Shown: in pieces, positions 24,553-24,872 of the stretch | Numbering within the stretch: position 1 is the first letter of the stretch | Layout: every line of letters starts with the position of its first letter | From: Escherichia coli | Lineage (GTDB): Bacteria; Pseudomonadota; Gammaproteobacteria; Enterobacterales; Enterobacteriaceae | DNA: 64,000 nucleotides | Strand: one strand, 5' to 3' | Assembly: GCF_003334405.1 (NCBI RefSeq) | Contig: NZ_QOWM01000005.1 | The notes under the pieces: model-generated | The model's input: the letters and a program-made list of their open reading frames with translations, nothing else | What the model was told of the DNA's origin: nothing | Database searches by the model: none | Position numbers and translations under genes: made by a program

Positions 24553-24872
24553 CGTCAGGCAAGGCTGTTATTGCCGGATGCGGCGTGAACGCCTTATCCG
24601 ACCTACACAGCACTGAACTCGTAGGCCTGATAAGACGCGCAAGCGTCGCATCAGGCAATGCTGTTATTGTCGGATGCGGCATGAACGCCTTATCCGACCT
24701 ACACAGCACCGAACTCGTAGGCCTGATAAGACGCGGCAGCGTCGCATCAGGCAATGCTGTTATTGTCGGATGCGGCGTGAGCGCCTTATCCGACCTACAC
24801 ACAGCACTGAACTCGTAGGCCTGATAAGACACAACAGCGTCGCATCAGGCGCTGCGGTGTATACCTGATGCG
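24553..24872. repeat. REP/BIME cluster: about three tandem ~100-bp units each carrying REP palindromes
   Basis: Repeated GCCGGATGCGGCGTGAACGCCTTATCCGACCTACA...GCCTGATAAGACGCG.AGCGTCGCATCAGGC units between pepA and holC. Confidence 0.85.

Follow-up and report, generated by a model that had tools for sequence, protein, structure and literature searches.

The question raised by the short intergenic region between pepA and holC of Escherichia coli is what kind of repeat fills it, how far its extent differs from strain to strain, and what, if anything, it does for the genes on its two sides. The window, i.e. the whole stretch of E. coli DNA that was analysed, is 64,000 nucleotides long, and all positions given below refer to it unless another source is named. 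The upstream gene pepA (leucyl aminopeptidase) corresponds to a 503-aa open reading frame at 23038-24549 (+) with a TAA stop at 24547-24549, the downstream gene holC (DNA polymerase III chi subunit) to one of 147 aa at 24903-25346 (+), and the latter overlaps by 1 nt with valS (valyl-tRNA synthetase; 25346-28201, +, 951 aa). The spacer between the co-oriented pepA and holC is thus 24550-24902, i.e. 353 nt, and an O157:H7 genome has exactly the same spacer sequence. The gene names are taken from the RefSeq annotation of the pepA, holC and valS locus of E. coli WP7-S17-ESBL-04, which has 2 differences over 1,751 nt, so that the placement of the repeats between pepA and holC in the initial annotation is borne out by both the flanking reading frames and a near-identical annotated locus. 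No repeat feature is listed for the pepA-holC spacer in the RefSeq record of MG1655. Two observations concern the flanking genes themselves: codon 63 of holC (25089-25091) encodes Cys in the window and Ser in K-12, O157:H7, O111, WP7 and strain 9A, and the Yersinia antisense sRNA family Ysr276 of Rfam matches at full length inside pepA, antisense to it (23596-23790, -, 181.5 bits), a match that probably reflects the conservation of pepA rather than an E. coli sRNA.

The spacer contains a head-to-tail array of three units of 96, 96 and 98 nt at 24552-24850. Tandem Repeats Finder returned a single array at 24555-24850 with a period of 96, 3.1 copies, 93% matches and a score of 504, and an ungapped repeat finder placed the unit boundaries at 24552-24647, 24648-24743 and 24744-24839; both agree with the three tandem units of about 100 bp seen originally. 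Unit 1 (24552-24647, +) and unit 2 (24648-24743, +) are 93% identical, and unit 3 (24744-24841, +) reaches its 98 nt once a 2-nt CA insertion in its tail-to-tail linker is counted, the unit-to-unit identities being 89/96, 88/98 and 90/98 (89-93%). The array begins 3 nt past the stop codon of pepA, and 52 nt separate its end from the holC start codon. At its left edge lies a partial Z2 head of 10 nt (GCGTCAGGCA, 24552-24561, +) that matches GCATCAGGCA, the sequence with which units 2 and 3 both begin, and it is because of this match that the copy count comes to 3.1. On the right, the array is closed by a truncated REP head, CCTGATGCG (24864-24872, +), which repeats the last Z2 head over 9 nt in inverted orientation and pairs with 24841-24849 into a 9-bp hairpin of -17.1 kcal/mol; this remnant is found in every E. 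coli BIME allele aligned. The extent originally given, 24553-24872, is therefore right to within a base on the left, while its right end takes in the CCTGATGCG remnant as well.

Concerning the anatomy of the units, a degenerate REP pattern found exactly six REPs in the array, in alternating orientation, and nine more elsewhere in the window (15 in total); the latter comprise three further Y/Z2 pairs at 48678-48761, 51934-52017 and 58174-58258, and single REPs at 20449-20484, 30210-30243 and 38762-38795. The three Y-type REPs, all on the + strand, occupy 24573-24606 (GCCGGATGCGGCGTGAACGCCTTATCCGACCTAC), 24669-24702 and 24765-24798, and the three Z2-type REPs, all on the - strand, 24621-24656, 24717-24752 and 24815-24850, so each unit pairs a Y REP with an inverted Z2 REP, bearing out the REP palindrome pair per unit of the initial annotation. 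Within a unit the two REPs stand tail-to-tail (CTAC ... GTAG) with linkers of 14, 14 and 16 nt; between units they stand head-to-head with a 12-nt linker (AATGCTGTTATT).

An RNA hairpin is predicted for each of the six REPs, with energies from -14 to -21 kcal/mol and with the lower and the upper stem parted by an internal loop. The first Y REP (-15.3 kcal/mol) has a C/A mismatch at the outermost position of its stem, where the second and third have a T-A pair. The first Z2 REP folds at -20.5 kcal/mol on the + strand and -21.4 on the - strand, and the upper stem of the third, weakened on the + strand (-14.3 kcal/mol), retains a G-U pair when folded as the - strand (-20.2). The spacer as a whole (361 nt as folded) has a predicted energy of -162.8 kcal/mol vs -114.2 +/- 5.2 for shuffled sequences (z = -9.3).

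These properties may be set against the published description of E. coli REPs as imperfect palindromes of 30-40 nt with a conserved GTAG foot, divided into types y, z1 and z2, in which a mismatch or bulge in the stem is needed for binding of TnpA-REP (Ton-Hoang et al., PMC3333891). The six palindromes are 34-36 nt long, each ends with CTAC on its own strand, and all six predicted hairpins have their stem interrupted by an internal loop. They are extragenic, as they follow the stop of pepA and precede the start of holC, and highly repeated, the array-containing query matching a median of at least 36 places per E. coli genome. According to the same source, a BIME-1 has one z1/y pair whose long L linker often carries an IHF site, and in a BIME-2 several copies of z2 and y, joined by a short linker, follow each other in tandem (PMC3333891). 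The array unites Y with Z2, not Z1, in inverted orientation, is tandem (3.1 copies, 96-nt period), and has linkers of 12-16 nt that, by their position and length, look like the short ones of BIME-2. BIME-1 was rejected as a candidate: the linkers are 12-16 nt, the IHF consensus WATCAANNNNTTR has no match in the spacer, and there are three copies instead of one.

Since the Y/Z2 composition, the tandem copies and the short length of the linkers fit the published definition, the array is assigned to BIME-2. That the six palindromes might not belong to the Y and Z2 families is excluded by the Rfam alignment. The model in question, Rfam RF02564 (naRNA4), was built on REP325, the BIME-2 of K-12 between yjdM and yjdN, in which Z2 and Y units alternate. 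The - strand of the array aligns with the model from one end to the other. The Z arm of unit 1 agrees with the Z2 hairpin of the consensus in every letter and the Y arm nearly so, and both REP325 and the array have the Y-Z2 block in common and lie between two co-oriented genes. They differ in that REP325 has twelve hairpins and the array six, in that the head-to-head linker of the array is 12 nt long and of another sequence, and in that the strand of the array passing the Rfam model is antisense to its flanking genes. The BIME-2 copies flanking tnpA-REP (yafM) resemble the array in their alternating Y/Z2 REPs, short linkers, tandem and extragenic arrangement and variability between strains. 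With respect to BIME-2 in the nomenclature of Gilson, Bachellier and Hofnung there is no substantive difference, the linker sequences being locus-specific, as usual. In the case of the pepA-holC BIME of MG1655 (K-12), site and flanks are the same, with a 159-nt spacer (4,484,281-4,484,439 of that genome), and the difference is one unit vs the three of the window. Overall, the feature is very probably best explained as a three-unit Y/Z2 BIME-2 array in the pepA-holC spacer of the E. coli chromosome; it is a long-known, ordinary kind of E. coli intergenic repeat at a known site, with nothing new in kind.

The relatedness to REP325 brings in a different possibility, namely that the Y-Z2 pairs are transcribed and processed into naRNA4-like, HU-binding RNAs that condense the chromosome, as in the original naRNA4 model (PMC4550694). 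Two matches on the - strand, at 24624-24699 (82.2 bits) and 24720-24795 (77.9 bits), indeed exceed the gathering score of RF02564 (59.5 bits). These are, however, antisense to pepA, holC and valS; on the + strand, sense to these genes, the scores are 51.9 and 55.7 bits, i.e. under the gathering score, and a simple scan found no sigma-70 consensus promoter on either strand of 24300-25100. The model also matches 51937-52014 and 58177-58255 (-) over threshold. RF02564 in effect models any Y-Z2 pair, and the hits here should be read as the BIME-2 pair and as no evidence for an sRNA gene. Moreover, a 2026 preprint, whose group has one author in common with the original paper, found no measurable nucleoid compaction by REP325/naRNA4 (bioRxiv 10.64898/2026.03.23.713779), and an RNA of this kind at pepA-holC is very improbable. 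Elsewhere in the window, structured-RNA matches include a Magnesium-II riboswitch aptamer (RF01056, 41645-41760, -, 125.8 bits) and a tRNA gene (12500-12581, -, 59.4 bits).

The array is also crossed by open reading frames of 99 aa (24533-24832, -), 77 aa (24585-24818, +), 64 aa (24674-24868, +) and 46 aa (24760-24900, -), which the initial annotation had dismissed as spurious. Were the 99-aa (-) or the 77-aa (+) frame translated, they would be real small-protein genes, and the occurrence of long frames on both strands could be quoted in favour of this; such frames are, however, long because the unit length of 96 is a multiple of three. The longest of them shrinks from 99 to 67 to 57 aa as the array goes from three to two to one unit, and the allele without BIME described below has only an unrelated 36-aa frame. 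The array frames had no NCBIfam match and no significant Pfam match—just a weak low-complexity one with E = 0.019—and the 12 RefSeq genomes that were inspected have no annotated CDS in the spacer, except for the IS621 transposase gene of strain CUVET20-416. Because their length tracks the copy number, no family matches and RefSeq annotates none, the frames are regarded as spurious on both strands, and the existence of a small-protein gene here is hardly conceivable. For annotation purposes, the 46-99-aa frames over 24533-24900 can be masked as REP-derived.

With regard to variation between strains, it has been described that the copy number of tandem BIME-2 at a locus differs among strains (PMC3333891) and that BIME-2 loci are polymorphic in length (PMC1187871). 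All 5,426 complete E. coli genomes gave a match to a query that covered the locus (5,426/5,426). Counting copies from BLAST coverage was dropped, a one-unit genome still showing 100% coverage in three pieces; coverage is uninformative on copy number because offset repeat alignments fill the query at any number of units. The spacer length was instead taken from three samples of 59 genomes each (177 in total), drawn in even steps down the ranking, the first from the locus-spanning query and the other two from flank-only queries, in which the hit span gives the length. Three units, with a spacer of 351-355 nt (353), were present in 81 of the 177 genomes (46%; 28 + 24 + 29 in the three samples), two units, with 246-260 nt (257), in 31 (18%; 12 + 11 + 8), and one unit, with 159-161 nt (159), in 14 (8%; 4 + 5 + 5), these being K-12 strains and a few others. 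The remaining class, of 130-133 nt (132), has no BIME and accounts for 51 genomes (29%; 15 + 19 + 17). Four or more units were found in none of the 177 sampled complete genomes; a four-unit array with a 455-nt spacer occurs in E. coli SCPM-O-B-8794. The initial annotation, which held that the unit number probably varies between strains and proposed a comparison of spacer lengths, is thus borne out, the length classes with BIME lying one unit apart.

Alignment showed that the BIME spacer classes differ by whole units in register and that the units are mosaics between strains. In the single unit of K-12, the left part corresponds to unit 1 of the window and is joined to a right part corresponding to unit 3; the array of strain 114 has a hybrid of units 1 and 2 followed by unit 3; and strain GN04530 has three units (355 nt) of which the middle one is a hybrid of units 2 and 3, so that an equal copy number can hide different recombination histories. 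Whole-unit classes together with mosaic units point to repeated unequal exchange between units; mosaics of this kind are what unequal recombination, or slippage with the units in register, should leave behind. In the Escherichia genomes examined, the array gains and loses complete units and ranges from one to four of them. The identity of units within an array is 98% in E. whittamii and 94% in the four-unit E. coli, a clear sign of concerted evolution in both; in the window, with 0.91 within the array vs 0.88-0.92 between arrays, this signal is weak. As the units of the window are no closer to each other than to those of other strains, its three-unit form appears to be an old one that has been passed on stably, and not the product of a recent amplification. 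Taken jointly, the identity as BIME-2 and the dynamics of its copy number are virtually certain.

The class without BIME is of a different nature. Its 132-nt spacer contains no REP, and in the place of the BIME there is a BoxC/PIT/TMECO intrastrand-triplex motif, of the type A listed in PMC4666352, which in these genomes fills exactly the spacer occupied by the array, between the same flanking bases. BoxC is an unrelated family (CCCTCTCCC...GGGAGAGGG...GGGTGAGGG) with neither a REP nor a GTAG foot, and it is absent from the window. The reverse strand of the 132-nt spacer reads CCCTCTCCCTTAGGGAGAGGGTTAGGGTGAGGGT; an example is the spacer of E. coli O111 RM9322, orthologous to 24550-24902 of the window. 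By exact count, in a search with the 132-nt spacer, it is complete in 1,405 of the 5,426 complete E. coli genomes (26%), and its first ~55 nt occur at a median of three places per genome. The site is thus dimorphic for two unrelated repeat families, and since about one quarter of E. coli lacks the BIME and K-12 has one unit, no particular form of the spacer is required.

Outside E. coli, three units with a 348-nt spacer are present in E. albertii, two with 259 nt in E. whittamii and one with 161 nt in Escherichia sp. MOD1-EC7003; the pepA-holC BIME-2 is shared within the genus Escherichia, in which between one and four units have been seen. A DNA-pattern scan for the holC start, with one genome per species, covered 60 loci. 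A single REP-like palindrome sits in the 98-nt spacer of Salmonella enterica diarizonae, REPs of their own occur at this place in Klebsiella and Leclercia, and Pseudocitrobacter (P. faecalis) carries BoxC-like repeats there in a tandem array (period ~68 nt). In Kosakonia the spacer repeat, which looks ERIC-like, ends just before holC. The pepA-holC spacer is a place where intergenic repeats recurrently land or are retained. What remains constant is a block of ~30 nt before holC, ATTTAAATCCACCACAAGAAGCCCCATAT-ATG, conserved in Escherichia, Salmonella, Klebsiella, Leclercia, Pseudocitrobacter and others, which in the window corresponds to the holC-proximal leader at 24873-24902 (+; TATTTAAATCCACCACAAGAAGCCCCATAT) with a Shine-Dalgarno-like AAGAAG; in many genera the variable repeats stop where this leader begins. 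The leader may hold a putative -10 element of the holC promoter and the ribosome-binding site, the ATTTAAAT block at 24874-24881 being a candidate for the former.

It should be pointed out that the array attracts mobile DNA as well. The 11-nt sequence ATCAGGCCTAC is a naturally observed target of IS621, mostly within REPs (Durrant et al., PMC11208160), and the array contains three exact copies of it with the CT core, at 24621-24631 (-) and again at 24717-24727 and 24815-24825; in the whole window it has 5 matches vs 0.01 expected. The flanks of the spacer are too distant to be joined in only 3 of the 5,426 genomes, and the one examined, that of strain CUVET20-416, carries in the pepA-holC spacer the transposase gene of IS621, an IS110-family bridge-RNA recombinase. 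With the junctions ...TTCGTAG|ATACTG...ATACA|AGGCCTGATAAG..., the insertion takes the form GTAG|IS|AGGCCTGAT within the orthologous array, and the element splits the second Z2 REP exactly at the CT core of its target (ATCAGGC-CT-AC). The pepA-holC site is thus a target for REP-specific mobile DNA. The initial annotation had foreseen neither these three exact targets nor the BoxC allele in about one quarter of E. coli, nor the finer name BIME-2.

As to what the array might do, the closest guide is REP325, which stabilises the upstream yjdM mRNA (Harris et al. 2026 preprint, bioRxiv 10.64898/2026.03.23.713779) and attenuates the downstream yjdN about 8-10-fold, partly via Rho; tandem gene pairs with canonical REPs between them show upstream-biased expression genome-wide, the effects of REPs being context-dependent and terminal REPs not generally lengthening the half-life of mRNA (bioRxiv 10.64898/2026.03.23.713779). 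By analogy, pepA transcripts would run into the array, whose six stable RNA hairpins would block 3'-to-5' exonucleases, thereby protecting the 3' end of the pepA mRNA, and would cause a partial, largely Rho-dependent attenuation of read-through into holC-valS. With the exonuclease block and the attenuation acting together, the array would bias expression to the upstream gene rather than serve as a clean terminator. No intrinsic (Rho-independent) terminator, i.e. a GC-rich hairpin with a U tract, was found in 24300-25100, and a search for literature on pepA-holC or holC-valS transcription gave no match. Judged from REP325 and other REPs, such a local stabiliser/attenuator effect at pepA-holC has about an even chance of being correct. 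A different mode of action, REP-mediated stalling of ribosomes, was set aside: it reportedly requires a REP no more than about 15 nt away from the stop codon, as ascribed to Liang, Rudd and Deutscher in 2015, and the first REP stem begins 23 nt past the pepA stop.

The main rival to a stabiliser/attenuator is that the array has no local function at all, being a selfish or neutral, non-autonomous REP/BIME in a permissive spacer, with a copy number drifting by recombination and with neither pepA nor holC depending on it for expression. The range of one to four units and the presence of BoxC instead in 26% of E. coli are compatible with this. The unrelated repeats in the spacer of other genera (REP, BoxC and ERIC-like) suggest that the site may be merely permissive, and the variable, context-dependent effects reported for REPs (bioRxiv 10.64898/2026.03.23.713779) agree with it too. 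On the other hand, among the genera with the conserved holC leader, a hairpin-forming palindrome lies directly upstream of this leader in most of the loci displayed, which would agree just as well with pepA requiring a structured 3' end, and REP-bearing tandem gene pairs are upstream-biased genome-wide. The absence of a local function is a real possibility, somewhat short of an even chance.

The array could also act as DNA rather than RNA. It would be a likely substrate of the REP-associated transposase TnpA-REP (RAYT) and, by its Y/Z2 composition of BIME-2, a likely strong site for DNA gyrase; a high-affinity site of gyrase binding and cleavage might relieve the supercoiling between the pepA and the holC-valS transcription units. 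Strains with the BoxC allele lack it, however, and a main role of this kind is unlikely. Strong binding and cleavage by gyrase are described for BIME-2 in the literature, and such a role of the array could coexist with the RNA role.

Returning to the stabiliser/attenuator reading, its furthest extension is that the allelic series—BoxC and one to four BIME-2 units—works as a heritable dial on the stability of the pepA mRNA and on the read-through into holC-valS, which appears rather doubtful. If it were true, common lineages of E. coli would differ measurably in the expression of pepA, holC and valS through repeat copy number alone. Independently of that, three exact native targets of the IS621 bridge recombinase lie beside the holC-valS gene pair, and the survey of alleles supplies naturally occurring variants with which to examine whether REP arrays set the ratio at which adjacent genes are expressed, as has recently been proposed.
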